Below are positions 1 to 36,974 of a stretch of 36,974 nt of DNA, piece after piece. Source of the stretch: a virus; IMG/VR virus record IMGVR_UViG_3300045988_122510, positions 1-36,974 of that record. The stretch is one strand, 5' to 3'. The notes below the pieces were generated by a model. The model ran no database searches, was not told where the DNA came from, and saw only the letters and a list, made by a program, of their open reading frames with translations. How positions within the stretch are numbered: position 1 is the stretch's first letter; each line of letters starts with the position of its first letter. The position numbers were made by a program, and so were the translations under genes.

Positions 1-55
1 AAATGAAAAAGGTTACAATTCAACAAAAAAAATTTATATTATATTTAGAAAATAT
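1..55. repeat. 55-bp terminal overlap, identical to 36920-36974 (circular contig closure)
   Basis: Read directly: bases 1-55 equal bases 36920-36974. An ORF starting at 36811 reads through the junction to a stop at 144-146. Confidence 0.95.
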
Positions 56-146
56 GTTAGATGATGAAAATGATATATTTTCAGTAGTCAGAGTTAAAGA
101 TGTTTTACAAAAATGCAAAGAGATGTTAGGAGATGATAAAGAATGA
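3..146 (+). CDS. 3' part of the junction-spanning small coiled-coil ORF (36811..36974, continuing at 56..146)
   Basis: In-frame continuation across the 55-bp overlap. Its stop, TGA 144-146, overlaps the next ATG at 143. Contains KKLQQEMKK like its neighbours. Confidence 0.55.
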   Translation: MKKVTIQQKKFILYLENMLDDENDIFSVVRVKDVLQKCKEMLGDDKE

Positions 147-427
147 ATAAAGAAAAAGACTTTTTTAAAACTTGTTTTAATATAGTAGCAGGACTAGAAG
201 TAAGAAATGAAAGCCAAACAATAGCAAAAGAAGTTGTTTTAAGCGAAATTGAACGTTTACAACAGGAAAATAGAAAGCAAAAAGAAATTATTGATGAGAC
301 AATAAATGCTATTGATTTAGTAATTGAGTTAGTAAAACAACAACCAACGGAAGATGATAGGTGGATTTTAGATAGATTAAATGGATTTAAGATTATTTTA
401 GAAGATAAAGAGGTGTCAGATGAATAA
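143..427 (+). CDS. small acidic coiled-coil protein, paralog family (LQQEN core, C-terminal EVSDE)
   Basis: 94-aa ORF with an ATGA overlap to the upstream gene. Motif ERLQQENRKQKEII. Ends KEVSDE, with GAGGTG inside its own 3' end serving as the SD of the next gene. Confidence 0.6.
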   Translation: MNKEKDFFKTCFNIVAGLEVRNESQTIAKEVVLSEIERLQQENRKQKEIIDETINAIDLVIELVKQQPTEDDRWILDRLNGFKIILEDKEVSDE

Positions 428-671
428 AAAAGAAATACTGGGATTATGTGGGCTTTTAAAATTACATGGTTATGAAAATACTGATAATATATCAAAATTC
501 ATATTTGAATTACAACAAGAAAATAAACAACTAAAAGAAGATATAAAAAATATAATAAAAATATTAGACAAAAATTGTGATGATTTAGAAGCAACAGAAG
601 AAGAATTTGATAGTTTAGACAGATGGCAGGGATTACAAGTTGTAGAGTTAGAAAAAGGGAGTGATGAGTAA
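420..671 (+). CDS. small acidic coiled-coil protein, paralog family
   Basis: 83-aa ORF with SD GAGGTG upstream and an overlapping start. Motif ELQQENKQLKEDI. Ends EKGSDE. Confidence 0.6.
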   Translation: MNKKEILGLCGLLKLHGYENTDNISKFIFELQQENKQLKEDIKNIIKILDKNCDDLEATEEEFDSLDRWQGLQVVELEKGSDE

Positions 672-1082
672 ATGAATGATAAAGAATATACTTACGACAT
701 TGATAAATACACGATAGGTGTAGACACAAATGGTGAAGATGGAATTGGTATGACTGTTGCAAAAGTAGAAAATGGTGAGATTTATTTTTTAGGCAATTGC
801 TATGGTGAAAATGCTAGATGCCTAGATTTATTAATAAAAGAAAATCAACAATTAAAAATCCAAATAAGTGCTAGAGAAGAAGAATATAGGAAGTTGGAAA
901 ATAAAGTAAATAAAATTATTGAAACAATAGATGAAGAATTAATATATGATAAAGGAACTGACATTACTTCAGCAATAGGCGATGTAGGAGAAAAAATGAA
1001 ATTTTATTTATCAGATTGTGAATTTTTAAACGAATTTAGAAAATTAGAAAGAGGTGAAAGTGATGAAAATAACAATATATGA
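672..1082 (+). CDS. small coiled-coil protein, paralog family
   Basis: 136-aa ORF whose start abuts the previous stop. Motif LIKENQQLKIQI. C-terminal RGESDE. Confidence 0.6.
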   Translation: MNDKEYTYDIDKYTIGVDTNGEDGIGMTVAKVENGEIYFLGNCYGENARCLDLLIKENQQLKIQISAREEEYRKLENKVNKIIETIDEELIYDKGTDITSAIGDVGEKMKFYLSDCEFLNEFRKLERGESDENNNI

Positions 1083-1392
1083 ATTATTAGGATTAGTTAA
1101 AGATGGTAAAGCACCTAAAAAAATTAAATTTTTGGAATTTAAAATGACATTTATTGAAACGGCAGAATGGGGAGATTATGAAGATGATAATCATCATAAA
1201 TTATCTGATTTTAGGCTAATAGATTGTTTAAATGATTTTGTAGAAATCATAGAAGAACCAAAGAAGATAGAATATGAGCAAATTGAAGAATTAACTTGTA
1301 ATGAATTTGATTTTGAAAAGAAAACTATTAATTCATTAATAAAAAATCAAAGGAAATTAATAGATGAAATTAACAATTTAAAGGAGAAATAA
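1063..1392 (+). CDS. hypothetical small protein (KITIYELLGLVKDGK type N-terminus)
   Basis: The ORF track starts at GTG 1054, but ATG 1063 sits 6 nt after the GAGGTG SD. The N-terminus resembles those of ORFs 2131 and 30032. Confidence 0.55.
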   Translation: MKITIYELLGLVKDGKAPKKIKFLEFKMTFIETAEWGDYEDDNHHKLSDFRLIDCLNDFVEIIEEPKKIEYEQIEELTCNEFDFEKKTINSLIKNQRKLIDEINNLKEK

Positions 1393-1883
1393 TGAAACAA
1401 AAAGATTTAAAAATAGATTTTAGATATTTAACTGGAAACATAGCTTGTTTGAGTGTAGATAGTATAAGTGGTGAATCAGTTCATAATGATATCAATAATG
1501 AAGAAGCAATTATAATTTTTAATTCATTAGTTGGAGAAAAAGCAGATTGTCAAACTGTAAAATCTTTATTAAAAGAAAATCAAGAATTAAAGAAAGAACT
1601 TGAAAAAAATAAAAATCCATTAAAAGGAATATTTGCACAAGTAAATGATGATATGCTTTTAAGAAATTGTGGAGCAATGCAATCCGAAATAGATACATAT
1701 AAAAATCAACAACAAGAGTTTATAAAATATTTAGAAGATGAAACAAAAGAAGTAGAAAAAACAATTGAAATGTTAAGTGATACTAATAGTTGTAGGATAC
1801 AAAATTTGAAGTATAAAGGAAATACTTTAAAAGAAATTTTACAAAAATACAAAAGTATAATAGGAGTATCAGATGAGCATTAG
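1392..1883 (+). CDS. coiled-coil protein, paralog family
   Basis: 163-aa ORF with TAATG coupling. Motif LLKENQELKKELE. Ends IGVSDEH. Confidence 0.6.
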   Translation: MKQKDLKIDFRYLTGNIACLSVDSISGESVHNDINNEEAIIIFNSLVGEKADCQTVKSLLKENQELKKELEKNKNPLKGIFAQVNDDMLLRNCGAMQSEIDTYKNQQQEFIKYLEDETKEVEKTIEMLSDTNSCRIQNLKYKGNTLKEILQKYKSIIGVSDEH

Positions 1884-2118
1884 AAAAAAGAAGGAATTAT
1901 ATGATTTTAATGATATAAAGCCTATAACTCTAATTAATATGGATAAAGAGGATTTACTTGATATTATACAAATGTTAAATACTAACATAAAAGCACATAA
2001 GCAAAGAGAAGATGTAATACGAGCAAGATTAGAAAAATGCTACAAATATTTTGAAAAGCAAGGACTAACTGATAAGGAAATTATAAACATAACACAATTA
2101 GATTGTGAAAAGATTTAG
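1873..2118 (+). CDS. hypothetical protein
   Basis: 81-aa ORF with SD AGGAG upstream. It overlaps the upstream gene by 11 nt. Confidence 0.55.
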   Translation: MSIRKKKELYDFNDIKPITLINMDKEDLLDIIQMLNTNIKAHKQREDVIRARLEKCYKYFEKQGLTDKEIINITQLDCEKI

Positions 2119-2130
2119 GAGGAAATAAAG

Positions 2131-2358
2131 ATGAATAAAAAATATAATATAACTCATATTAAATTATTAAAAATGATTAAAAAAGGAAAACTTAAAGAAG
2201 GAACAAAAATATATGCAAGTGATTTTGTTGCCCCACTATTTTATGAAAATGGAACATTATACTTTTATAATTGTTATGATGAAAGAGAACCATTAACATT
2301 TAAAGGTTTTATTGAAAATATAAAATATGCTAAATTTAAAATAGGAGATGATAAATAA
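2131..2358 (+). CDS. hypothetical small protein
   Basis: 75-aa ORF with a strong SD (AGGAGG), 7 nt upstream. Confidence 0.6.
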   Translation: MNKKYNITHIKLLKMIKKGKLKEGTKIYASDFVAPLFYENGTLYFYNCYDEREPLTFKGFIENIKYAKFKIGDDK

Positions 2359-2528
2359 TGACGGCAAAGCAAAAGATATTTTATTTAATATTATTAATAA
2401 TATGGCTGTTATTGATGATTTGGGAATTTTCTATTGGAGAATATAAAATAATAATAAAATCAATTTGTATTTTTATCGGTAGCTTTATAATGGGCATTAT
2501 ATATGCAAAATTAGGAGATAAAAAATGA
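2358..2528 (+). CDS. small membrane protein (2 predicted TM segments), not in the ORF track
   Basis: ATG 2358 overlaps the upstream stop (TAATG). The 56 codons translate to MTAKQKIFYLILLIIWLLLMIW...FIGSFIMGIIYAKLGDKK. The stop overlaps the next ATG. Confidence 0.5.
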   Translation: MTAKQKIFYLILLIIWLLLMIWEFSIGEYKIIIKSICIFIGSFIMGIIYAKLGDKK

Positions 2529-2881
2529 AATTAGAAATTGGACAATTTGTTAGAACTAAAGATGGAATTATAGCAAAAGTAGATTACATAGATGATAATA
2601 CAATATTTTTTGATAAAGACCTTTATAGAACTTATGGTGATAGTATTAACTTTTTAGAAAAAGATAATTTAGAAAAAATAGTTAAAGCCAGTTATAACAT
2701 AATTGATATTTTGAAAGTTGGAGATTACGTTAATGGAGTTGAGGTAATTAATATTGATGATGAATGGATAACAACGAGTGATATACAAGTTCCAATATTA
2801 AAATCAATAGCAAATGGAATGATTAAATCAGTTATTACACACGAACAAATGGAGCAAATGGCTTATAAGGTAGGTGAGTAA
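2525..2881 (+). CDS. hypothetical protein
   Basis: 118-aa ORF with SD GGAG and an ATGA overlap. Confidence 0.6.
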   Translation: MKLEIGQFVRTKDGIIAKVDYIDDNTIFFDKDLYRTYGDSINFLEKDNLEKIVKASYNIIDILKVGDYVNGVEVINIDDEWITTSDIQVPILKSIANGMIKSVITHEQMEQMAYKVGE

Positions 2882-2883
2882 AG

Positions 2884-3084
2884 ATGAGTGAACATTTAAA
2901 ATTAGTTAAAGAAAATGCTTATATGAAATTATGCATTATACAATTAATAGAAGAATTAAAAGATAATGGGAAAGCGAAAGTTATTAAAGATTATTTGGTT
3001 GATGTTATTGATGGAGTTTATGGGAATACTCTAGGAGATAATAAAGAAAACTATTTTGATAAATTAACAAAGGAACGTGATTAA
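2884..3084 (+). CDS. hypothetical small protein
   Basis: 66-aa ORF with SD GGTGAG. Confidence 0.55.
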   Translation: MSEHLKLVKENAYMKLCIIQLIEELKDNGKAKVIKDYLVDVIDGVYGNTLGDNKENYFDKLTKERD

Positions 3085-4812
3085 ATGATAGATGAAAAAT
3101 TACAAGAAAAGTTGTTAAGTGTATTTGATAAAAGATTTCAAGATTATAATACAAAAGTATTAGAAAAATTAGGAAATGTTATCAAGCAATTTAAAGACTT
3201 AACTCCATCACAGGCTTACGAGTTAGGTCAGCAACTAAAATACAATACAACTGTCAAGGACTTACTAGATGAGTTATCTAAAATAAGTGGCTTGTCTGTT
3301 AAAGACTTGAAAGCAATACTAGAAAAGGTTGCAAAAGAAAACATTGGATTTGCGGATACTTATTATAAATCAAGAGGCTTGGAAACACCTATTTATAGTG
3401 AAAATAAAGCACTACAAAGGCTCGTTAATTCAGTTTATAATATAACTGGCAAAGAATTTAAAAACATTTCCAAAAGCACAGGATTTAGACTTTTGGATAA
3501 GGATAAAAAGCCTTTATTATTAAATATTAACGAAGTTTATAAAGAAGTTATTGATAGAAGTGTAATAGCTGTTAGCGAAGGTAAGGAATCTTACCAACAA
3601 GTTATGAGAAACACACTTCGACAATTGAGTGAAAGTGGAGTTCGTAAAATTGAGTATGAAAGTGGTTACTCTAGAAGAATAGATACAAGTGTTAGGATGA
3701 ATGTTTTAGATGGAATGAGACAAGTGGCAAATGAAAGCCAACAATTATTTGGACAAGAATTTGACAGTGATGGTATAGAAATATCTGTTCATCAAAATCC
3801 AGCTGATGATCATAGCATAGTTCAAGGACGTCAATTTTCAAATAAAGAATATGAAAAATTGCAAGAAACAGGAATTGCTACTGACTATACTGGCAAAGTA
3901 ATTGACATAAATTTAAAAAAGGGATTTAGACCCATATCAACACTCAACTGCTATCATTACATATTTTCAATAGTGTTAGGTGTGAGCAAACCGAGATATA
4001 GTGAAAAAGAATTACAAGATATAAACGAAAAGAATAAAAAAGGGTTTGAATTTGAGGGTAAACATTATACAATGTATGAAGGCACACAATTACAAAGAAA
4101 AATCGAAACTGCTATTCGTGAAGCAAAAGATACACAAATATTGGCTAAATCAAGTGGTGATGATGATTTGGTATTACAAAGCCAAACAAGAATTACACAA
4201 TTAACTACTAAATACAAAAAATTATGTAACGTTAGTGGACTACCTGATAAGTTATCTACTAGAGCAAGTGTAAGTGGCTATAAAAGAACTAAAATTAATA
4301 AAAAACCAAGTATAGTAAAATTTAAAAATGAAGTTGATTTTACTAAAAGCAATCATCCTAAGCCAATTTTGCTTGAAAAAATAGAACGAAAACAAATTGA
4401 TCAAAGAATAACATATTATGAAGATTTAATAAGAAAAAGCGATATAGAAAATGCTATTATTGTAACTAAAAATAATGAAGTTTATCAATGCTTTGGAAAT
4501 AAAGATAACGTATGGCCTGATATTGATTTACCTGATAAATTAGAAAATGCCATTGTGACTCATAATCATTTGAAGGAAAAAACAAGTTTTACATTTAGTA
4601 ATGATGATATTTCATTTTTTGAAAAGAACAAATTAAAAAAATTAAGAGGAACTGATTATAAATACGTTTATGAATTAGATAAAAATGGCAAACCCACATT
4701 AAAAGAACCATTGCTTGACGAAATGGTAGAAGATGGTTCTCTTGAATATATAAAAGCAATAAATTATGCCATTAAAAATGATATTTCTTTTAAAAGATGG
4801 AGACTAAAATGA
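3085..4812 (+). CDS. head morphogenesis / minor capsid protein (MuF, SPP1 gp7-like) with a ~170-aa C-terminal extension
   Basis: Family-typical block YSRRIDTSVRMNVLDGMRQV...GIEISVHQNPADDHSIVQGRQFS, followed by GKHYTMYEGTQLQRKIE. At 575 aa it is longer than the core domain. Confidence 0.8.
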   Translation: MIDEKLQEKLLSVFDKRFQDYNTKVLEKLGNVIKQFKDLTPSQAYELGQQLKYNTTVKDLLDELSKISGLSVKDLKAILEKVAKENIGFADTYYKSRGLETPIYSENKALQRLVNSVYNITGKEFKNISKSTGFRLLDKDKKPLLLNINEVYKEVIDRSVIAVSEGKESYQQVMRNTLRQLSESGVRKIEYESGYSRRIDTSVRMNVLDGMRQVANESQQLFGQEFDSDGIEISVHQNPADDHSIVQGRQFSNKEYEKLQETGIATDYTGKVIDINLKKGFRPISTLNCYHYIFSIVLGVSKPRYSEKELQDINEKNKKGFEFEGKHYTMYEGTQLQRKIETAIREAKDTQILAKSSGDDDLVLQSQTRITQLTTKYKKLCNVSGLPDKLSTRASVSGYKRTKINKKPSIVKFKNEVDFTKSNHPKPILLEKIERKQIDQRITYYEDLIRKSDIENAIIVTKNNEVYQCFGNKDNVWPDIDLPDKLENAIVTHNHLKEKTSFTFSNDDISFFEKNKLKKLRGTDYKYVYELDKNGKPTLKEPLLDEMVEDGSLEYIKAINYAIKNDISFKRWRLK

Positions 4813-4813
4813 A

Positions 4814-4843
4814 TTTACAAAAAATAAATTAATGTGATATAAT
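4814..4843 (+). promoter_or_regulatory. sigma-A type promoter for the non-coding locus
   Basis: TTTACA (4814-4819), 18-nt spacer, TGaTATAAT extended -10 (4835-4843). Confidence 0.6.
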
Positions 4844-4887
4844 TAATGCAGTGGAAAAAGTGTTTTACAATTTCCTTGCGTGTTACC

Positions 4888-5043
4888 TTTATAGGTAGCA
4901 TATTGAGTAAATAAAGAGAGAATGTTAGAGAGGACGTGTCTAACTGGTCGAACCTATTGTTACTATATCTATGGTACCTGATAGTGATAAAGGGCAATAG
5001 GAATGGAATCGAAATTTTATTTACTCAGTATGGTGCTTATAAG
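4888..5043 (+). ncRNA. structured RNA module U1 (about 28 positions of basal helix closing a ~100-nt branched apical domain)
   Basis: 4888-4915 pairs with 5016-5043, with 4 G-U pairs and one G/G mismatch. Internal hairpins are GTTAGA/TCTAAC (4923-4943) and CCTATTG/CAATAGG (4953-5002). Confidence 0.6.
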
Positions 5044-5223
5044 CCTATTTTCCCGTGTGGAGGTAAGATTTAAGCATTATTATTGATATGTAAAGTTAGA
5101 AGTGATAAGACACTTAAAAATCTATCTTGCAAGTACTACATATCAATTCATATACTTCATTGATTAGTTAAAATACGAATGTATGTAGGCTAGTTTGACA
5201 TTATAGTATATGCTTGCTATCTC

Positions 5224-5358
5224 TTGTAGGTAGCATATCGAGTAAATATAAAATAGAGCTCTTGGTAGAGTCTGGGTGCGTACGCCAATCCAAAACTAAG
5301 ACAATGGGGTATAGGTTCGATTCCTATTGATTATATTTACTTGATATGCTGCTTGTAA
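5224..5358 (+). ncRNA. structured RNA module U2 (28-bp basal helix closing a tRNA-like domain)
   Basis: 5224-5251 pairs with 5331-5358 with no mismatch and 5 G-U pairs. The apical 79 nt contain a D-arm-like GCTC-TTGGTA-GAGT (5258-5271) and a canonical T arm ATAGG-TTCGATT-CCTAT (5311-5327). Confidence 0.65.
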
Positions 5359-5499
5359 ATACTAGCAGTCTATAAATGTGTTCCAGAATGGAGTAAATCA
5401 AGAAATTGATGTAGAAATCATCTTTATAGGCAATAAGCACTTATGCAAATAATATATACTTCATTACATTAGCTGCCATTGTTATATATTGACTATCTC

Positions 5500-5592
5500 T
5501 AGTAGGTAGTGTCTAGTGATATAGAAACAACTAGTATCATGTAGCTACTAATCGAGGCTAGGCTCGTATATATCATTAGACAGTATCTATTA
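5500..5592 (+). ncRNA. structured RNA module U3 (24-position basal helix, ~45-nt apical domain)
   Basis: 5500-5523 pairs with 5569-5592, with 3 G-U pairs and a G/G mismatch at the same place as in U1. It has the same TAGGTAG start as U1 and U2 but a different, co-varying helix sequence. Confidence 0.55.
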
Positions 5593-5610
5593 AGATACAT
5601 GAACTGAAAG

Positions 5611-5635
5611 GCAACCTTAATGGTTGTTTTTTTTT
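5611..5635 (+). terminator. intrinsic terminator ending the non-coding locus
   Basis: Hairpin CAACC-ttaat-GGTTG followed by a run of 9 T. Confidence 0.6.
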
Positions 5636-5641
5636 GTGTAT

Positions 5642-5670
5642 TTGATTTTTTTTAGTAAATATGATATAAT
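5642..5670 (+). promoter_or_regulatory. sigma-A type promoter
   Basis: TTGATT, 17-nt spacer, TATAAT, with a TG extension (TGaTATAAT, 5662-5670). Confidence 0.55.
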
Positions 5671-5699
5671 CTATCTAGTGATTAAAGGTAGGCGAGTTA

Positions 5700-5825
5700 A
5701 TGAAAGAATATCGTTGTATTTGTGGGAAACTCTTATTTAAAGGCAAATTTAAAGGTATTATTTCAATAATGTGCCGACATTGTAAAAAATTGATAGAGTT
5801 CCATTCAGAGAGCCAAGATAAATAA
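5700..5825 (+). CDS. Com-like zinc-finger protein (phage Mu Com family), 41 aa, not in the ORF track
   Basis: Translation is MKEYRCICGKLLFKGKFKGIISIMCRHCKKLIEFHSESQDK. This gives CxC...CxxC with the KLLFK signature of Mu Com. SD AGGTAGG lies upstream. Confidence 0.6.
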   Translation: MKEYRCICGKLLFKGKFKGIISIMCRHCKKLIEFHSESQDK

Positions 5826-6566: not shown

Positions 6567-6835
6567 ATGGCTAACGTAATCGCATTAGCAAAGAAATATA
6601 CTCGTCTTGTTGATGAAAAATATCAAAAAGAGAGTTTAACAAATGATTTAACTAGCCCAGCTTCACTTGCTAGAGAAGGAGCTAACGCAAAAGAAATTCT
6701 TTATAGACAAGTAGGAGTTAGTGGATTAGGAGATTATTCAAGAAATAGTGGTTATACAAATAACAGTGTAACTGTTGAATGGAAAACTGCTACATTTAAT
6801 TATGATAGAGGTACTAAAATTACTCTAGACACGAT
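6567..6835 (+). CDS. major capsid protein, exon 1
   Basis: Abundant-structural-protein style ORF ending ...FNYDRGTKITLDT. The frame hits a stop 6 codons past the proposed 5' splice site. Confidence 0.75.
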
Positions 6836-7616
6836 AAACTTAGTTTGTGCTTAATCTGTCGTGTATAAATCCCTGAATTAAGCTGGAAAGCTAAGTTCAA
6901 TATATGGTATAATATATATAGGTGATAATATGAAATGTATTTGTTCAATTTGTAAAAAAGAATTTGACAGAAAACCTGCTTTAATTAAAAGAGCAAAATA
7001 TCCTGTTTGTTCTAGAGAATGCCAAACAGAATTAAAAAAGAAAAGAAAAATAGTACATTGTGTTATATGTGGAAAAGAATTATTAAGAAGTGATAACAGA
7101 TTAGCAATAAGACCTAATCCAACTTGTTCAAAAGAGTGTAAGGCAAAACTTCAACATAAATTATCATATAATCCAAATATAACCGATGAAGAAAGAGAAC
7201 AAACAAGAAAAAATCAAAAAAATTATGATTTTATTAAAATAGTTTTACAAAGAGATAATTATACTTGCCAATTATGTGGCGAATATGGGCAAAAGTTAGT
7301 TGTTCATCATCTAAATGGATATAATTGGGATAAAGAAAATAGATATAATGTAGACAATGGAATAACATTATGTGAAAAATGCCATAAAGCATTTCATAAA
7401 ATATATAGAAATGGAAATAATACCAAAGAACAATATATTGAATACGCTAATCAGAACCGAAGGCTAGATTAAGTCTAGTCAGGGGCAACGCATAGTAGGT
7501 GAAAAGATATAATCCTACCACGAGGCAGGGACAACTTAAAAGTTGAAAAGATATGCTGAGCTTATAGGAAACTATAAGAAGTAAAAGATAAAAAGCTTTT
7601 ACGATAACAAAAAATG
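6836..7616 (+). mobile_element. group I intron (781 nt) in the major capsid gene
   Basis: P1: exon ACACGAT (6829-6835) pairs with GTCGTGT (6858-6864), with a U-G pair at the splice site. P10: exon 2 GGAT (7617-7620) pairs with ATCT (6854-6857). The intron ends in G. Exon lengths 269+613 = 882 nt, in frame. Confidence 0.75.
6930..7472 (+). CDS. intron-encoded HNH homing endonuclease
   Basis: HNH core CQLCGEYGQKLVVHHLNGYNWDKENRYNVDNGITLCEKCHKAFH. Two N-terminal CxxC...C zinc-ribbon repeats. It has its own TGgTATAAT (6905-6913) and an SD. Confidence 0.85.
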   Translation: MKCICSICKKEFDRKPALIKRAKYPVCSRECQTELKKKRKIVHCVICGKELLRSDNRLAIRPNPTCSKECKAKLQHKLSYNPNITDEEREQTRKNQKNYDFIKIVLQRDNYTCQLCGEYGQKLVVHHLNGYNWDKENRYNVDNGITLCEKCHKAFHKIYRNGNNTKEQYIEYANQNRRLD

Positions 7617-8229
7617 GGATAATGAAGAAACAATGGGAGATACTTATTTAATCGCTCAAAATTCATTACAAACTTATCAAGTAGCACCAGAAGGAGACGC
7701 ATTCACATTTGCTACAATCGCTAGCAAAGCTGGTATTTCTGTATCAGCAGAAGATGGTGAAACATTCGCAGATGGAGAAGCATTCTTAACAGCATTATTA
7801 AAAGGTGTTACAAAAATGGACGAAGACCAAGTTCCAGCAGAAAATAGAATATTATATGCTACACCAACATTATTAAATAGTGTTATGGCATTAGATACTA
7901 CTAAATCAAGAGAAGTATTAGGAAAATTTGCAAAGACTGTTGCAATTCCACAAACTCGTTTCTATACTAAAATTGACTTATTAGATGGAACATCAAGTAA
8001 TGAAGAAATGGGTGGATTTAAGAAAGATGTTGCTGGTAAAGATATTAACTTTATGATTATTCACAAACCAGCTGTTATCAAATTTGATAAACATGTTGTA
8101 TCAGACGCAATTCCACCAGAATTAAATGCAGACGCTGACGCATATATCTCTAAATATAGAAAATATGGTTTAGTTGATGTATTTAACAACAAAACTGCTG
8201 GTATCTATATTTCATACAAAGCAGCATAA
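7617..8229 (+). CDS. major capsid protein, exon 2
   Basis: The frame is open from 7585. Splicing creates ...DRGTKITLDT-M-DNEETMGDTYLIAQ... The composite protein is 293 aa. Confidence 0.75.
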
Positions 8230-23319: not shown

Positions 23320-23396
23320 GGGTAGATACTCAAGTGGTCTAAGAGGCAAATCTGCAAAATTTGTATTCATGGGTTCGAATCCCATTCTGCCCTCCA
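23320..23396 (+). tRNA. tRNA-Cys (anticodon GCA) with an encoded CCA
   Basis: Hand-folded cloverleaf. Acceptor GGGTAGA/TCTGCCC. Anticodon stem CAAAT/ATTTG with loop CTGCAAA. T arm ATGGG-TTCGAAT-CCCAT. Discriminator U73, a Cys identity element. A13/A22 mismatch. Confidence 0.8.
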
Positions 23397-30427: not shown

Positions 30428-31825
30428 ATGAATCAAACAACAATATTCGATGTGTTGTATCCTAAATACAAAATAATAAAGCCAATTAGATTAATAGAAT
30501 TATTTTCAGGCTACGGAAGTCAATATTTAGCATTAAAATATCTAGGTGCAAATGTAAAACATTATAAAATTTGCGAATGGGCAACCAAAAGTATTCAAGC
30601 ATACAATGATTTACACATTCAAGATTATTTTGATTATTCTGGGGTTCTAAGTGATGATAATATTTTAAAAGTTTTGATAGAGTTAGGAGTTAGCATTAAT
30701 TATAATGAACCAGCAACCAAAGAACAATTAAAAAGGTTAGATTTTAGAAAAATATATAATAACATAATTGCAACAAATAATTTAGTTAATATTCAAAATG
30801 TCAAAGGTGAAGACTTTAGAATAGTTGACAAAGACCAATATGATTACATTATGACTTATTCATTTCCTTGCCAAGATTTATCACTTGCTGGTAAAGGCAA
30901 AGGCATGGCTGATACTTCGACTAGAAGCGGTATGTTATGGGAAGTTGAAAGAATATTAAATGAATTAAAAGAAACAAATAGTCTACCACAAATTTTGTTA
31001 ATGGAAAATGTTCCTCAAGTCCATGGCTCTGATAATGTGGAACATTTTAATAAATGGCAATTGGCATTAGAAAATATGGGATACAAAAATTATTTTCAAG
31101 ACCTCATAGCCACTGATTATGGAATACCACAAACAAGAAACAGATGTTTCATGGTTAGTATTCTTGGAGAATATTCATATACATTTCCAAAACCTATAAC
31201 ACTTGAATTAAAACTTAAAGATATGTTAGAAGATGAAGTTGATGAAAAATATTATTTGAGTGATAAAATGTTGAATTATTGTTTTGGAGTAAATCAAAAA
31301 GAAAGCAAGTTTCCTAGAAAAGAAAGGTTTTTACAAAGTTTAGAACAAACAAATGATAAATCTATTGCAACAACGATAACTACTAATGCAGGAAACAGAC
31401 CAACAGACAATTTTATTCAAGAACCATTGAAGAAAGAATTATGCAATAAACTAATAAAAGAAGGAGATATAATAAAACATAGTTATACTAATCAAATTTT
31501 AAATGGGAACAAAAAATGTGTAGAACAAACAAATGGTAACATGATAACTTTAACTACTAGAGGAGATTGTTATGGAGTATGCGTTGGAACTTATCAATAT
31601 GCAAAAAGTGATACTTTACAAACTACATCAAAAGAAGCAGTTTGTTATAATGATTTAAGAATAAGAAAATTAACACCTTTAGAGTGCTTTAGACTTATGG
31701 GGGTTAAAGATGAAGATTATTACAAAATAGCCAAAAATCAAAGTAATTCAAGTTTATATCATCTTGCAGGAGATAGTATAGTTGTAAATGTATTAATGGC
31801 GATATTTAAGGAGTTGATTAAATGA
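30428..31825 (+). CDS. DNA (cytosine-5) methyltransferase
   Basis: Motif I ELFSGYGSQ, motif IV SFPCQDLSLAGK, motif VI ENVPQV, motif VIII QTRNRCF, motif IX-like RKLTPLECFRLMG, and motif X GDSIVVNV. A ~170-aa variable region lies between motifs VIII and IX. Confidence 0.9.
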   Translation: MNQTTIFDVLYPKYKIIKPIRLIELFSGYGSQYLALKYLGANVKHYKICEWATKSIQAYNDLHIQDYFDYSGVLSDDNILKVLIELGVSINYNEPATKEQLKRLDFRKIYNNIIATNNLVNIQNVKGEDFRIVDKDQYDYIMTYSFPCQDLSLAGKGKGMADTSTRSGMLWEVERILNELKETNSLPQILLMENVPQVHGSDNVEHFNKWQLALENMGYKNYFQDLIATDYGIPQTRNRCFMVSILGEYSYTFPKPITLELKLKDMLEDEVDEKYYLSDKMLNYCFGVNQKESKFPRKERFLQSLEQTNDKSIATTITTNAGNRPTDNFIQEPLKKELCNKLIKEGDIIKHSYTNQILNGNKKCVEQTNGNMITLTTRGDCYGVCVGTYQYAKSDTLQTTSKEAVCYNDLRIRKLTPLECFRLMGVKDEDYYKIAKNQSNSSLYHLAGDSIVVNVLMAIFKELIK

Positions 31826-34430: not shown

Positions 34431-35830
34431 TGTTAAAAACTTTGTTTAATTGGATTTTAAAAACATTATTTGGAGTAACTACTGAAACGAATAATGTTGA
34501 AATGACAATGAACGACAAATTTGCTCAAGAATATAGAGCAATTGATGAAATTAATTTTACGAGTATATTTGCAAATAAACTAGCAAATTTTACAGTAAGT
34601 GATAGTACGGCTAATATAGTAGGAAATAACAAACGAACTCAAATGCTTACTGATACTTTAAATTTAGTCATGACTAAAGGCAAAAAAATAGTTGGTATGC
34701 AGTTGGGGTATGGGGGTGTATGTATCGTACCATATATTGACAAGGGACAATTATTGTATACACTTGTCGAGCAAGACAGACTTACAATTGACCAAATAAG
34801 TGGCGATAAAATTACTGGTGCTACATTATTAGCAGAGCAAAAAACAATTACAAGTGGCTCTATAAGCAATACATATTTTAGATGGGTAAATTATAGAATT
34901 GAAAACAATGTAATTATAATGCGACAAAAATACACTGACCAGCAAGGAAGCGAAATTGATGTTAATTTAATTCCCGAATGGGCTACCATTAATCCAGAAG
35001 AAAGAATAATGAATGTTGATAGAGTTTTATTTGGTTATAGTAAATCACCTGTTAATAATAGAATCGGAAATGACAAATATGGGGTTCCTGTTACATTTGG
35101 ATGCGAACATACAATTTCTGAAATAAAAGATTGTTTAAAACAAATTGCTCGTGAATTTGCATTAAAAGAAGCCTTTGTAGGCGTTGACGAGAGAATGTTC
35201 GGCAAAGATAGTCAAGGGCGTCCTAAATTACCTAGAAATGGTTTATTTAGAACATTTAAAAGTGACAGCGACACGGATTTTTTTCAAGAATTTAGTCCGG
35301 CAATAAGGGAAAGTTCTTATTATGCTAGATTAGAAGAGCTATATACAAGACTTGAAAAAGAAGTTGGTGTTAGTAAGGGCTTTTTGACTGATATGGACAG
35401 TTCAAATGCAACTGCTACTGAAATTAGAAGAGCTATGTATGATACTTTTACTTTAGTTAATGATATTCGTAAAAACTTTGAAAAAGGTATAGAAGATTTT
35501 ATTTATGCTTGTAATGTGCTGGCAAATAGATATAATCTAAGCCCTTTAGGCGATTATGAATTGGCATTTAATTGGGATTATTCATTGTTAACTGACACTC
35601 AAGAGGAATTTAATCATTATATTCAAGGCGTTAGCCAGGGTGTTATTTCTAAGGCTGAGTTGAGGAATTGGATTATTCCAAATGAAACAATTGAGGAAAG
35701 CAAAAAAGCAATTGAAGAAATAGAAAATGAAACACCAAACATAGATGAATTGCTTAATAATAGTTCTCAAAGCGATGAAGATTTTGGTGGCAAGAAAGAG
35801 GTAAATGATGAAAAGAATAACAATAAATAG
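34430..35830 (+). CDS. portal protein (SPP1 gp6-like)
   Basis: ~466 aa, immediately after terL. ATG 34430 lies 6 nt after GAGGAGG. Acidic C-terminus. Confidence 0.8.
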   Translation: MLKTLFNWILKTLFGVTTETNNVEMTMNDKFAQEYRAIDEINFTSIFANKLANFTVSDSTANIVGNNKRTQMLTDTLNLVMTKGKKIVGMQLGYGGVCIVPYIDKGQLLYTLVEQDRLTIDQISGDKITGATLLAEQKTITSGSISNTYFRWVNYRIENNVIIMRQKYTDQQGSEIDVNLIPEWATINPEERIMNVDRVLFGYSKSPVNNRIGNDKYGVPVTFGCEHTISEIKDCLKQIAREFALKEAFVGVDERMFGKDSQGRPKLPRNGLFRTFKSDSDTDFFQEFSPAIRESSYYARLEELYTRLEKEVGVSKGFLTDMDSSNATATEIRRAMYDTFTLVNDIRKNFEKGIEDFIYACNVLANRYNLSPLGDYELAFNWDYSLLTDTQEEFNHYIQGVSQGVISKAELRNWIIPNETIEESKKAIEEIENETPNIDELLNNSSQSDEDFGGKKEVNDEKNNNK

Positions 35831-36275
35831 TGAAGATAGAAATTTAAATAGATCAAGTATCGTAGTTGGTTATCTAGAAGAAAACAGAGCAGAAAAAATA
35901 AAATTCGATATTCCAGAAGAATACAAAGATTTTAGTAAAAAAGCTTGTTTCAAATCCCAAGATAAAACATTTGTCAAAATCTTTGACGATGTTGTTAGCG
36001 ATACTTTAACATTTACTAGTGACATTACTAAATACAGTGATTTAGATATGACAATTGTTTTTTTCAAGCAAGACAATGAAGATGAAATAATTGCTAAAAC
36101 CTCAAAATTGCATATAAAAATAAAAGATGCTATTATATGTGACGATGACGTACAGCCAGATGAGCCCAAGGTTATCTTATTAGACCAATTAATAGAGACA
36201 GTTACTCAAAAAATAAATGAAGTCAATAACTTAGATGTTAAAGGCGAAAGAGTAAAATCTTTCTTTTTTTATTGA
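35805..36275 (+). CDS. hypothetical protein (beta-rich N-terminal part, short coiled coil)
   Basis: 156 aa with SD AGAGGT. There is a loose BppU-N-like pattern, ITINSEDRNLNRSSIVVGYLEEN, and it is not firm. Confidence 0.5.
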   Translation: MMKRITINSEDRNLNRSSIVVGYLEENRAEKIKFDIPEEYKDFSKKACFKSQDKTFVKIFDDVVSDTLTFTSDITKYSDLDMTIVFFKQDNEDEIIAKTSKLHIKIKDAIICDDDVQPDEPKVILLDQLIETVTQKINEVNNLDVKGERVKSFFFY

Positions 36276-36300
36276 TTTTTAAATAATTATATTATATAAT
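36272..36300 (+). promoter_or_regulatory. sigma-A type promoter heading the small-ORF operon
   Basis: TTGATT, 17 nt, TATAAT. Confidence 0.6.
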
Positions 36301-36326
36301 TAAATAAAGAAAGGAGATAAAAGGAT

Positions 36327-36470
36327 ATGAAAAAAATAAAAACGATTAATATTGATGAAAAAATTTACAAAGAGTTTCAAATGTATGCAATTATGATTAA
36401 TAAAAGTGTATCATCATTAATAGAACAATTTATGAGAGAAACACTTAAAGAAATTAAAAAAGAGAAATAA
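36327..36470 (+). CDS. ribbon-helix-helix (CopG/Arc-like) protein, 47 aa, not in the ORF track
   Basis: SD AAAGGAG upstream. Translation is MKKIKTINIDEKIYKEFQMYAIMINKSVSSLIEQFMRETLKEIKKEK. Confidence 0.55.
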   Translation: MKKIKTINIDEKIYKEFQMYAIMINKSVSSLIEQFMRETLKEIKKEK

Positions 36471-36475
36471 GAATA

Positions 36476-36814
36476 ATGAATAAAGAAGAAATTTATAAAA
36501 GAATTATGGTATGTGAGAAGAAAGAAAGAGATTTTTTAGAAGCAGGAAATACTAGAACTGCTAATCGTTATCATAATGAAATTCAAAAATGGGAAAAATT
36601 ATTAAATCAATTAAATCCTAAAATGGAAAAAGAATTAAATGAATACAGAAGAGGTTATTACAAGCAAAAAGAAGTTATTGATAAAGCAATAAACGAATTA
36701 TCTATTTTAAAAAATATGATGTATAAACCAGAAACGAGAGAAGAAAATTTTGAAATTCAAAAAAAGCTATCTTCATTAATAAAAAGATTAAATAGTAAAG
36801 AGGTATCAGAATGA
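36476..36814 (+). CDS. small coiled-coil protein, paralog family (ends KEVSE)
   Basis: 112-aa ORF. Its 3' end, AAAGAGGTATCAGAATGA, has the same junction design as 420 and 1873. Confidence 0.55.
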   Translation: MNKEEIYKRIMVCEKKERDFLEAGNTRTANRYHNEIQKWEKLLNQLNPKMEKELNEYRRGYYKQKEVIDKAINELSILKNMMYKPETREENFEIQKKLSSLIKRLNSKEVSE

Positions 36815-36974
36815 ATGAACAAGATGTGTTAGGTGCATTTTTATTAGTTAATAATCCTATTGTATTGAGTGAAGAAGAAACAAAAGATGTTCAAAAAGCA
36901 ATTAAAAAATTACAACAAGAAATGAAAAAGGTTACAATTCAACAAAAAAAATTTATATTATATTTAGAAAATAT
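36811..36974 (+). CDS. 5' part of the junction-spanning small ORF (continues at 56..146)
   Basis: The ATG overlaps the upstream stop. It reads MNEQDVLGAFLLVNNPIVLSEEETKDVQKAIKKLQQEMKKVTIQQKKFILYLEN... with no stop before the window end. Confidence 0.55.
   Translation, partial: MNEQDVLGAFLLVNNPIVLSEEETKDVQKAIKKLQQEMKKVTIQQKKFILYLEN
36920..36974. repeat. second copy of the 55-bp terminal overlap
   Basis: Identical to bases 1-55. Confidence 0.95.

Follow-up and report, generated by a model that had tools for sequence, protein, structure and literature searches.

We analysed a 36,974-nt stretch of virus DNA (IMG/VR record IMGVR_UViG_3300045988_122510, positions 1 to 36,974; hereafter the window, whose numbering is used for all coordinates) that carries, at 4814-5635, a non-coding locus with three tandem units (U1 to U3), each closed by a long stem. 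This stem proved to be a widespread, conserved scaffold that encloses more than 100 unrelated inserts (cargoes), and by sequence matching it recurs in hundreds of uncultured gut and rumen phages with predicted low-GC Firmicute hosts. Comparison of family members shows a predicted RNA scaffold that is specific to the transcribed strand and supported by covariation, with modular inserts and alternative pairings of its flanks; we consider it very probably a real family of structured RNAs. The arrangement of cassettes on a common stem is, as far as we found, undescribed in RNA databases or the literature (searches by concept and by motif string found no description, with incomplete coverage of the large csRNA catalogues). 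We model the products as stem-handled, probably RNase III-processed phage non-coding RNAs. The reading that we prefer, and hold tentatively, is that the stem would serve as an RNase III-type processing stalk or as a protein handle for interchangeable effector RNAs, with flanks that would refold as end caps after cleavage.

A conserved scaffold stem and its distribution

The stems and the two larger cargoes of the window are listed below.

4888-5043, + strand: U1, class-A scaffold stem; arms 4888-4916 and 5015-5043 with a G4898·G5033 mismatch, enclosing the U1 cargo
4917-5014, + strand: U1 cargo, a three-way-junction domain; hairpin 4923-4943 and a stem 4952-4958/4996-5002 that encloses an apical hairpin
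5224-5358, + strand: U2, class-A scaffold stem; arms 5224-5251 and 5331-5358, with a G5233-C5349 pair at position +4 instead of G·G
5252-5330, + strand: U2 cargo, a tRNA-like domain; D arm 5258-5271 (GCUC-UUGGUA-GAGU), short hairpin ~5273-5284 and T arm 5311-5327 (AUAGG-UUCGAUU-CCUAU)
5498-5594, + strand: U3, class-B scaffold stem; arms 5498-5525 and 5567-5594 with a G5509·G5583 mismatch

A preliminary description of this locus had proposed three tandem RNAs, each with a related long basal helix that begins TAGGTAG and each with a different apical domain. Inverted repeats (4889-4915/5016-5042, 5215-5251/5331-5367 and 5500-5523/5569-5592), the predicted fold and the covariation reported below bear this out, and a purpose-built stem scan returned stems of 28-29 positions at 4888/5043, 5224/5358 and 5498/5594. 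The + strand of the locus folded at -226 kcal/mol (z = -8.8) and the - strand at -170 kcal/mol (z = -5.4). No further copies of the stem were found elsewhere in the window. The breadth of the family, the interchangeable apical cassettes, the alternative flank hairpins and a second promoter (5642-5670) go beyond that description.

Exact matches to a 22-mer from the 5' arm of U1 and U2 were present in 38 IMG/VR stretches. A slightly degenerate version matched at least 120 metagenome stretches, some from human gut and others apparently from rumen or animal gut, together with 4 genome contigs that include an uncultured Bacilli metagenome-assembled genome and Clostridium sp. CAG:1000. BLASTN searches of 50,697 GenBank phages with the locus and two stem variants did not find the stem, and the window phage itself gave two trivial matches only in this set. 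For the analyses that follow, 239 unique elements were collected from 162 loci plus the window; L-numbers (L010, L121 and so on) denote contigs or loci elsewhere that bear stem elements. Stem positions were counted from the first G of GGTAG, with primes for the 3' arm.

A matching 3' arm lay 50-190 nt downstream in all 38 viral loci. For 5' arms taken from other contigs by the search pattern only, 125 of the 128 unique sequences had a partner within 330 nt that paired at 19 or more of 22 positions (controls, mostly 13-17). About 90% of elements had a stem of 24-28 bp. Pairing was present in more than 90% of the 239 elements at each of the positions -5 to +19 except +4, where 224 had a G·G mismatch. 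The 5' strand is invariant at UAGGUAG(C/U) and faces G-U-(G/A)-(C/U)-(U/C), with the G·G mismatch between them. Class A (GGTAGC...GGTGCY; U1 and U2 in the window) and class B (GGTAGTG...CAGTATC; U3) have this base in common, and both have several covarying variants of the upper stem (A, A2, A3, B, B2 and others). Elements are arranged in arrays of one to four, rarely five, and class B usually comes last.

Two features of the pairs argue that the helix is formed in RNA. Across the 239 elements there were 826 G·U pairs against 43 A·C pairs, which indicates that folding is selected on the transcribed strand only. The pairs also covary: position +9, for example, was GC in 98 elements, UA in 84, CG in 32 and AU in 15. 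In a set of 67 diverse stems, 98.4% of cells were paired (71.9% in shuffles), a value owed in part to the way in which stems were collected; 18 of the 22 pairs had changed on both sides, and the covariation score was 0.79, compared with 0.26 for shuffles and at most 0.16 for slid partners. Homologous loci thus conserve the pairing; loss of pairing in related phages was among the outcomes that the preliminary description had named as refuting it.

Alternative hairpins at the stem flanks

The base of each arm can also pair outward. On the 5' side, an upstream GCTATC-like segment (a) pairs with the stem base (b, GGTAGCAT) to give a 5' flank hairpin; on the 3' side, the base of the 3' arm (b', GGTGCT-like) pairs with a downstream AGCAC-like segment (a') to give a 3' flank hairpin. 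The former had at least 6 pairs in 187-188 of the 239 elements (12 of 239 with shuffled flanks) and the latter at least 5 pairs in 141-142 of 239 (12 in shuffles). Both hairpins covary; in b':a', position 0 was UA in 70 elements and CG in 58, and position 2 was GC in 69 and AU in 55. In the flank hairpins, each G of the stem's G·G mismatch has a C as its partner, and the loops, UUUAUA and UAUAA, correspond to the two complementary strands that make up stem positions -5 to -1. The hairpins of the window are as follows.

4880-4901, + strand: U1 5' flank hairpin, GUGUUACC (a) with GGUAGCAU (b), in place of the base of the long stem; seen in the sequence and present in the minimum free energy (MFE) fold
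5032-5078, + strand: U1 3' flank hairpin, GGUGCUUA with UAAGCAUU, 31-nt loop; from the fold and family-wide statistics
5215-5235, + strand: U2 5' flank hairpin, UGCUAUC with GGUAGCA; from the sequence and family-wide statistics
5348-5369, + strand: U2 3' flank hairpin, GCUGCU with AGCAGU; from the sequence
5492-5510, + strand: U3 5' flank hairpin, ACUAUCU with AGGUAGU; from the sequence and family-wide statistics
5583-5598, + strand: U3 3' flank hairpin, GUAUCU-AUUA-AGAUAC; from the sequence, with the same hairpin 3' of class-B elements in other contigs

In U2, flank a' has changed from C to G in step with the rare change from G to C at +4'. The 3' flank hairpins are not followed by a U-tract and hence are not terminators.

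The pairings a:b, b:b' and b':a' are mutually exclusive and all covary, their energies lie within a few kcal/mol of one another in many elements, and the 5' flank hairpin of U1 appears in the MFE fold. These properties would suit a bistable switch or a co-transcriptional clamp, in which the alternatives act like an attenuator or an rRNA leader-trailer helix and any processing is incidental; a clamp would keep the ends of the cargo together for correct folding, and a switch would toggle in response to a signal. There is precedent for a clamp in leader-trailer helices, which are reported to aid 16S rRNA folding (PMC10250234). Taken together, we judge the two versions unlikely. In the intact chain the long stem was favoured over the flank hairpins in nearly all cases (median, 4.7 kcal/mol), no ligand or signal was evident, the 3' flank hairpins have no U-tract, and a clamp would not need an invariant sequence.

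Cargoes as interchangeable cassettes

Cargo length ranged from about 10 to 267 nt. The 225 cargoes of at least 25 nt fell into 126 unrelated clusters, 83 of them singletons, and the multi-member clusters were each conserved across contigs (85-100%). One cargo cluster can be found on more than one kind of upper stem and in either class, A or B. "Empty" stems with loops of 10-24 nt were also present. A T-loop motif was found in only 2 of the 40 largest cargo clusters, and cargoes from 27 loci (14 searched by E-value, 13 at gathering score) matched no Rfam family apart from tRNA-type matches. At L010 13826-13900 and L008 2738-2791, a cargo family found elsewhere in a class-A stem lies inside the loop of a 3' flank hairpin (GGTGTC...GGCACT), so short flank stems can hold cassettes too. 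An origin of cargoes from phage genes, in the manner of spacers, was considered and dropped, as cargoes matched nothing but other elements and inserts of flank hairpins.

The U1 cargo had 6 homologues, every one within a class-A stem. Its apical loop (~17 nt) contains a self-complementary GGUACC (4973-4978) that is invariant in all 7 copies while the supporting stem varies, and we regard it as a candidate kissing-loop dimerisation site. The U2 cargo resembles a tRNA in its D and T arms, and the T arm covaries across 6 homologues located in 4 different upper stems. U2 itself was not called as a tRNA by ARAGORN or by Rfam (RF00005), even at E ≤ 10; neither method recognised in it a cloverleaf with a 7-bp acceptor stem, an anticodon arm and a free 3' end. 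In L022 and L068, U2 homologues or similar sequences scored above the Rfam tRNA threshold (42.7 bits), which is consistent with descent of U2 from a tRNA. The U3 cargo (45 nt, ~5524-5568) is so far unique and was found in no other contig. A conserved small coding frame, named in the preliminary description as an outcome that would overturn it, is excluded by the homologues of the U1 and U2 cargoes, which differ by 1- and 2-nt insertions or deletions.

With a conserved stem, a variable loop and a length of about two helical turns, the stem could itself be the product: RNase III would dice the 22-25-bp helix into ~22-nt small RNAs that base-pair with a host target or guide a host nuclease, and the cargo would be a spacer or stabiliser. 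We find this very improbable. Free covariation of the upper half of the stem among classes leaves no one guide sequence that is conserved past GGUAG; the cargoes have structure and are 85-100% conserved across contigs; and no complementary target was seen in the sequences examined. The diversity of the cargoes and their shuffling suggest trans-acting effectors under diversifying selection. As a hint at function, cargo diversity of this kind would be the signature of an arms-race repertoire.

Genomic neighbourhood of the arrays

Among the loci of at least 4 kb, elements were on the coding strand in 74 of 79. tRNA genes lay within 400 nt of 26 of 138 arrays, on the same strand in 25 of the 26, and some elements begin 6-30 nt past a tRNA 3' end. 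Array sites included positions between minor capsid 2 and scaffold genes, upstream of the small terminase gene and inside tRNA islands; the 150 open reading frames (ORFs) beside arrays mostly encoded minor capsid 2, small terminase and scaffold proteins. Two contigs, L041 (4561-5760) and L119 (6560-8214), have the order tRNA, ROOL (178 and 153 bits), class-A element, class-B element, tRNA. ROOL is thus directly followed by stem elements, and the family shares non-coding RNA islands with it.

Whole arrays also differ in genome position. An array in L121 and L032 has the promoter, leader and terminator of the window type with different cargo at a different genome position, and the closest relative, L010, has one extra element between promoter and leader. 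The preliminary description had called the position of the locus, between head morphogenesis and scaffold genes, unusual for any of the classes that it proposed; the array is self-contained and was found at several hot spots.

Such differences in position would also be expected of a cassette that acts at the DNA level, with the stems as terminal inverted repeats like those of miniature inverted-repeat transposable elements (MITEs), or as folded single-stranded DNA sites (integron attC-like or IS200/IS605-like), and with RNA structure secondary. Cargo and stem are shuffled, elements and whole arrays occupy different genome positions in related phages, TATA occurs on the flanks of both arms, and near-identical stems occur in phages whose proteins are only 37-45% identical. 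This explanation nevertheless seems improbable to us. The mismatches are G·T on one strand (826 against 43) with the direction kept in 239 copies, which is unexpected for transposase-bound repeats, although folded single-stranded DNA could fit. The 74 of 79 loci noted above follow the direction of transcription, and the sites lie between promoters, tRNA genes and terminators. The cargoes themselves covary as RNAs do, and no transposase or integrase was recurrent among the 150 array-flanking ORFs (top 25 of 46 families).

Three of the 150 array-flanking ORFs had an RNA_ligase domain (PF09414, best 4e-14; within loci L002-L073), which may indicate a connection with the repair of tRNA or other RNA. 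Just downstream of the arrays in L008, L013, L016, L020, L021 and L034 lies a small Cys-rich ORF (MKKKKENLKLCMIYHCKECPRARKCEEEE..., 40-60 aa). As a partner of the arrays it was dropped, as it follows only 10 of 119 arrays and has no Pfam match. In several other phages, the arrays have homologues of window ORFs 1392-1883 and 2525-2881 directly upstream.

A model of stem-dependent processing

In our preferred reading, in which the stem is a processing stalk or protein handle, the transcript would fold into the long-stem form, favoured by about 5 kcal/mol. The two-turn helix would then be cut by host RNase III or a related double-stranded RNA-specific factor, and might also be a sequence-specific protein handle by way of its G·G site. 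Cutting would free a stable, stem-capped cargo RNA. The remaining basal duplex, weakened by its mismatch and wobble pairs, would dissociate, and each flank would form a hairpin of Watson-Crick pairs only, as a cap that shields the adjacent RNA ends from exonucleases. The cargoes would be effectors that act, most likely in trans, on host RNA-handling, translation or defence factors, and the identical stems would double as homology arms for swapping cargo between phages.

The choice of RNase III follows from the geometry of the stem. Duplexes that arise in B. subtilis from intramolecular pairing over a long range (>100 nt) are cleaved by RNase III (PMC11780869), and a two-turn helix from distant segments is the kind of duplex concerned; we infer an RNase III-type substrate. 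For an RNase III stalk we looked for a largely uninterrupted duplex of at least 20 bp made from distant segments, and the stem has 24-28 bp with one mismatch. The preliminary description had suggested RNase III-processed tRNA-mimic decoys, which is compatible with the stem geometry in this model, yet only a minority of cargoes are tRNA-like.

A broader form of the idea, which we put forward with less confidence, is a natural RNA "cassette display", in which a bistable two-turn stem would be a universal processing and protection module, possibly also a recombination module, for more than 100 swappable effector RNAs. Its cargoes could be tRNA mimics, self-associating RNAs, or protein decoys against host defence or translation. 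If so, one could view the arrays as the RNA equivalent of islands of anti-defence genes, housed alongside ROOL in the tRNA islands of phages.

Several points weigh against processing by this route. Everything beyond secondary structure, including the transcript, the cleavage site and the binding protein, belongs to the model. The near-invariant GGUAG and G·G exceed the known needs of RNase III, perhaps a sign that some other factor is involved. The role of the alternative flank hairpins could instead be that of a guide to co-transcriptional folding or of a genuine switch. The two spacers between the units of the window fold no better than shuffles. The 40 window ORFs scanned with Pfam include none that is recognisable as an RNA enzyme or RNA-binding partner. 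Apart from the tRNA-like one, the cargoes match no RNA class that is known, so an effector role is a guess. The 98.4% pairing is partly due to the mode of stem collection, for which the pattern-only test (125 of 128) controls.

If the family is real, it would supply more than 100 new candidate domains of structured RNA at hundreds of loci in uncultured phages, with a single handle, GGUAG plus its partner arm, to search for all of them. The stem would be a defined bait for the protein or nuclease that reads it, and so an entry to the purpose of phage non-coding islands (tRNAs, ROOL, GOLLD). Should the portable stem excise, stabilise and insulate its inserts and cap their neighbours, it could be used as an expression scaffold for Gram-positive hosts.

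Comparison with known RNA classes

Covariance-model searches were made with Rfam (version 15) over the whole window at gathering score and, with cmscan at E ≤ 10, over 4700-5750; no family matched the locus in this check, which the preliminary description had proposed. At E ≤ 10 only noise was returned (STnc420 on the terminator and SpF41 on the T arm). As a positive control, the same tool found ROOL at 178 bits in L041 and 153 bits in L119. The ROOL model (RF03087) had no match in the window at gathering score or at E ≤ 10, and neither the GOLLD model nor a Y RNA-type model matched in 4700-5750 at E ≤ 10. Membership of the ROOL or GOLLD class, one of the earlier suggestions, is thereby rejected, and the link to ROOL is one of neighbourhood (L041 and L119).

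The helix covaries except in its invariant GGUAG and G·G core, which suggests that a sequence-specific reader acts in addition or instead. Such a core can be accommodated by a Y-RNA-like ribonucleoprotein scaffold, in which the stem, its groove widened by the G·G, would bind one host or phage protein (Ro60/Rsr-like, or another protein that binds double-stranded RNA) and the cargo, by analogy with the loop of Y RNA that tethers PNPase, would tether or gate partners with no cleavage. A single handle with many modules has this layout, U2 has the YrlA arrangement of a long stem with a tRNA-like elbow (PMC4201824), and the "empty" stems suggest that the stem has a role of its own. We think this explanation rather unlikely: TROVE/Ro was absent from the 40 window ORFs scanned and not recurrent in the 150 array-flanking ORFs (top 25 of 46 families), the stem has no GGUCCGA-like motif and no Rfam Y RNA match at E ≤ 10, and the covarying flank hairpins are left unexplained.

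YrlA itself had also been raised in the preliminary description, with the remark that the phage has no rsr/Ro gene, and that remark is supported by the Pfam scan. In bacterial Y RNAs of this type, which are bound by Ro60/Rsr, the terminal stem has a GGUCCGA-like motif on its 5' strand (Chen et al. 2014, PMC4201824). Like them, the elements described here have a long stem formed by the ends, with a conserved recognition element of the kind that proteins read and a variable module on top; a covariation-supported tRNA-like D/T-arm module is present in the window in U2 only; and both occur in phages and can be co-transcribed with tRNAs. In contrast to YrlA, the stem has GGUAG and G·G in place of a GGUCCGA-like motif with a bulge, no rsr/TROVE gene was found nearby, Rfam gives no match, and more than 100 unrelated modules, most of them not tRNA-like (U1 and U3 among them), are carried on one stem with covarying flank hairpins. 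What survives of the suggestion is an analogy of architecture, seen in the long stem and D/T arms of U2.

Known RNase III stalks (rRNA leader-trailer helices, T7 R sites and the B. subtilis duplexes of PMC11780869) are likewise duplexes of about two turns whose segments lie 60-300 nt apart and enclose a structured RNA. They too occur in polycistronic transcripts with tRNAs, and the putative cleavage would leave hairpin-protected ends, as at T7 sites. Here, however, the stem sequence is conserved across very different phages, the mismatch is invariant, the flanks can refold, and more than 100 small RNAs are found on one stalk. With ROOL and GOLLD (RF03087; PMC12286853) the family has its niche in common, namely Firmicute phages and prophages of gut and rumen, by tRNA genes, and the palindromic loop of U1 could mediate RNA-RNA assembly; the units are modular and 60-300 nt long, in contrast to a single fold of 580-800 nt, with no match in sequence or structure. 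By analogy, the stem would work most like a Y RNA (handle plus module) and an rRNA or T7 RNase III stalk, in a niche common with ROOL/GOLLD.

Three further systems were compared. The tRNA cluster of phage T4 encodes small, stable RNAs (species 1 and 2, or RNAs C and D) that are co-processed with phage tRNAs and are partly tRNA-like; unlike the present family, they lack a common long scaffold stem, diverse cassettes and arrays of this kind. Correia (nemis) repeats of Neisseria are MITEs with inverted ends of ~26 nt, and their transcripts fold into hairpins that are cut by RNase III, which alters the stability of flanking RNA. They resemble our elements as dispersed short elements with inverted arms that form long hairpins when transcribed. 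They differ as DNA-level repeats with an essentially uniform interior, whereas here G·U pairs are strand-specific (826 G·T against 43 A·C, in every case on the transcribed strand), the interiors comprise more than 100 unrelated structured sequences in 126 clusters, no target-site duplication was seen and no transposase recurs; a MITE or Correia-type origin was rejected on these grounds. TIGR-Tas arrays consist of short-period tandem guide units. They are reported to adjoin a gene for a Tas (Nop-domain) protein (PMC12045711). This class was also rejected: units here lie 100-330 nt apart with inserts of 10-267 nt, and no Nop-domain match was found in the 40 window ORFs.

Transcription signals and spacers of the window locus

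The locus has its own predicted signals for transcription.

4814-4843, + strand: sigma-70-type promoter predicted to drive the RNA array, TTTACA-18 nt-TGaTATAAT; score 11/12 with an extended -10
4851-4877, + strand: 5' leader hairpin GGAAA...UUUCC, predicted in the MFE fold
5079-5213, + strand: spacer module 1, with a hairpin 5082-5092/5137-5147 (inverted repeat I14); block conserved in L047 and L109
5370-5491, + strand: spacer 2, with a ATATACTTCATT box and a pre-stem box common with spacer 1 (direct repeats D3 and D6)
5606-5635, + strand: intrinsic terminator, predicted end of the array transcript; 11-bp stem, 5-nt loop and T9 run
5642-5670, + strand: second promoter, TTGATT-17-TGaTATAAT; score 10/12 with TG, a direct repeat of the first promoter region (D2)

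The promoter-to-terminator non-coding unit is present as the preliminary description had it, with the coordinates of all elements within 1-2 nt, and the absence of a + strand ORF of at least 60 aa was confirmed from the end of the MuF-like ORF (4812) to a 41-aa ORF at 5700. The upstream neighbour (ORF 3085-4812) is minor-capsid-2/MuF-like (Pfam Phage_min_cap2, 4e-60). The array promoter is 93-95% conserved upstream of arrays in L010 and L121, a leader of the window type precedes arrays with different cargo in L032, L035 and L121, and a homologous terminator lies 3' of arrays in L032, L121 and L010. A 3-kb scan returned 3 terminator-like sites against 0.8 expected. From its sequence, the promoter at 5642-5670 is predicted to restart transcription into the 41-aa ORF and the scaffold and capsid genes, which would make the array an autonomous unit. 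For annotation, "gaps" in phage structural modules can accordingly be autonomous RNA operons.

Neither spacer was retained as an independently stable fold (z = -0.8 for spacer 1 and +0.7 for spacer 2 against shuffles). A 10-nt inverted match between U1 and U2 (TCGAACCTAT/ATAGGTTCGA) was dropped, being at roughly chance level in 1 kb.

Additional features of the window

The 41-aa ORF directly after the array (5700-5825) encodes a CxC...CxxC zinc ribbon and matches Com, the RNA-binding translational activator of Mu, below threshold (PF10122, E = 0.044). It was dropped as a dedicated partner of the array, given that sub-threshold match and the lack of a similar ORF by arrays in the other 162 loci. 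Further downstream, the major capsid gene is seemingly split: ORFs 6567-6854 and 7633-8229 match neighbouring portions of a single gene in L007 and L031, and an HNH endonuclease ORF (6930-7472) lies between the halves, an arrangement that resembles an intron or homing-endonuclease insertion (6567-8229). A group I intron was considered for this gene and had no Rfam match, as was the case for group II.

If the genome is circularly permuted, about 4 kb of small ORFs with no Pfam match lie between the portal and MuF-like genes (1-3084 plus 35805-36974). The sole tRNA gene of the window, tRNA-Cys(GCA) at 23320-23396, is remote from the array, and a C-5 cytosine DNA methylase is encoded at 30428-31825 (Pfam 3e-51).

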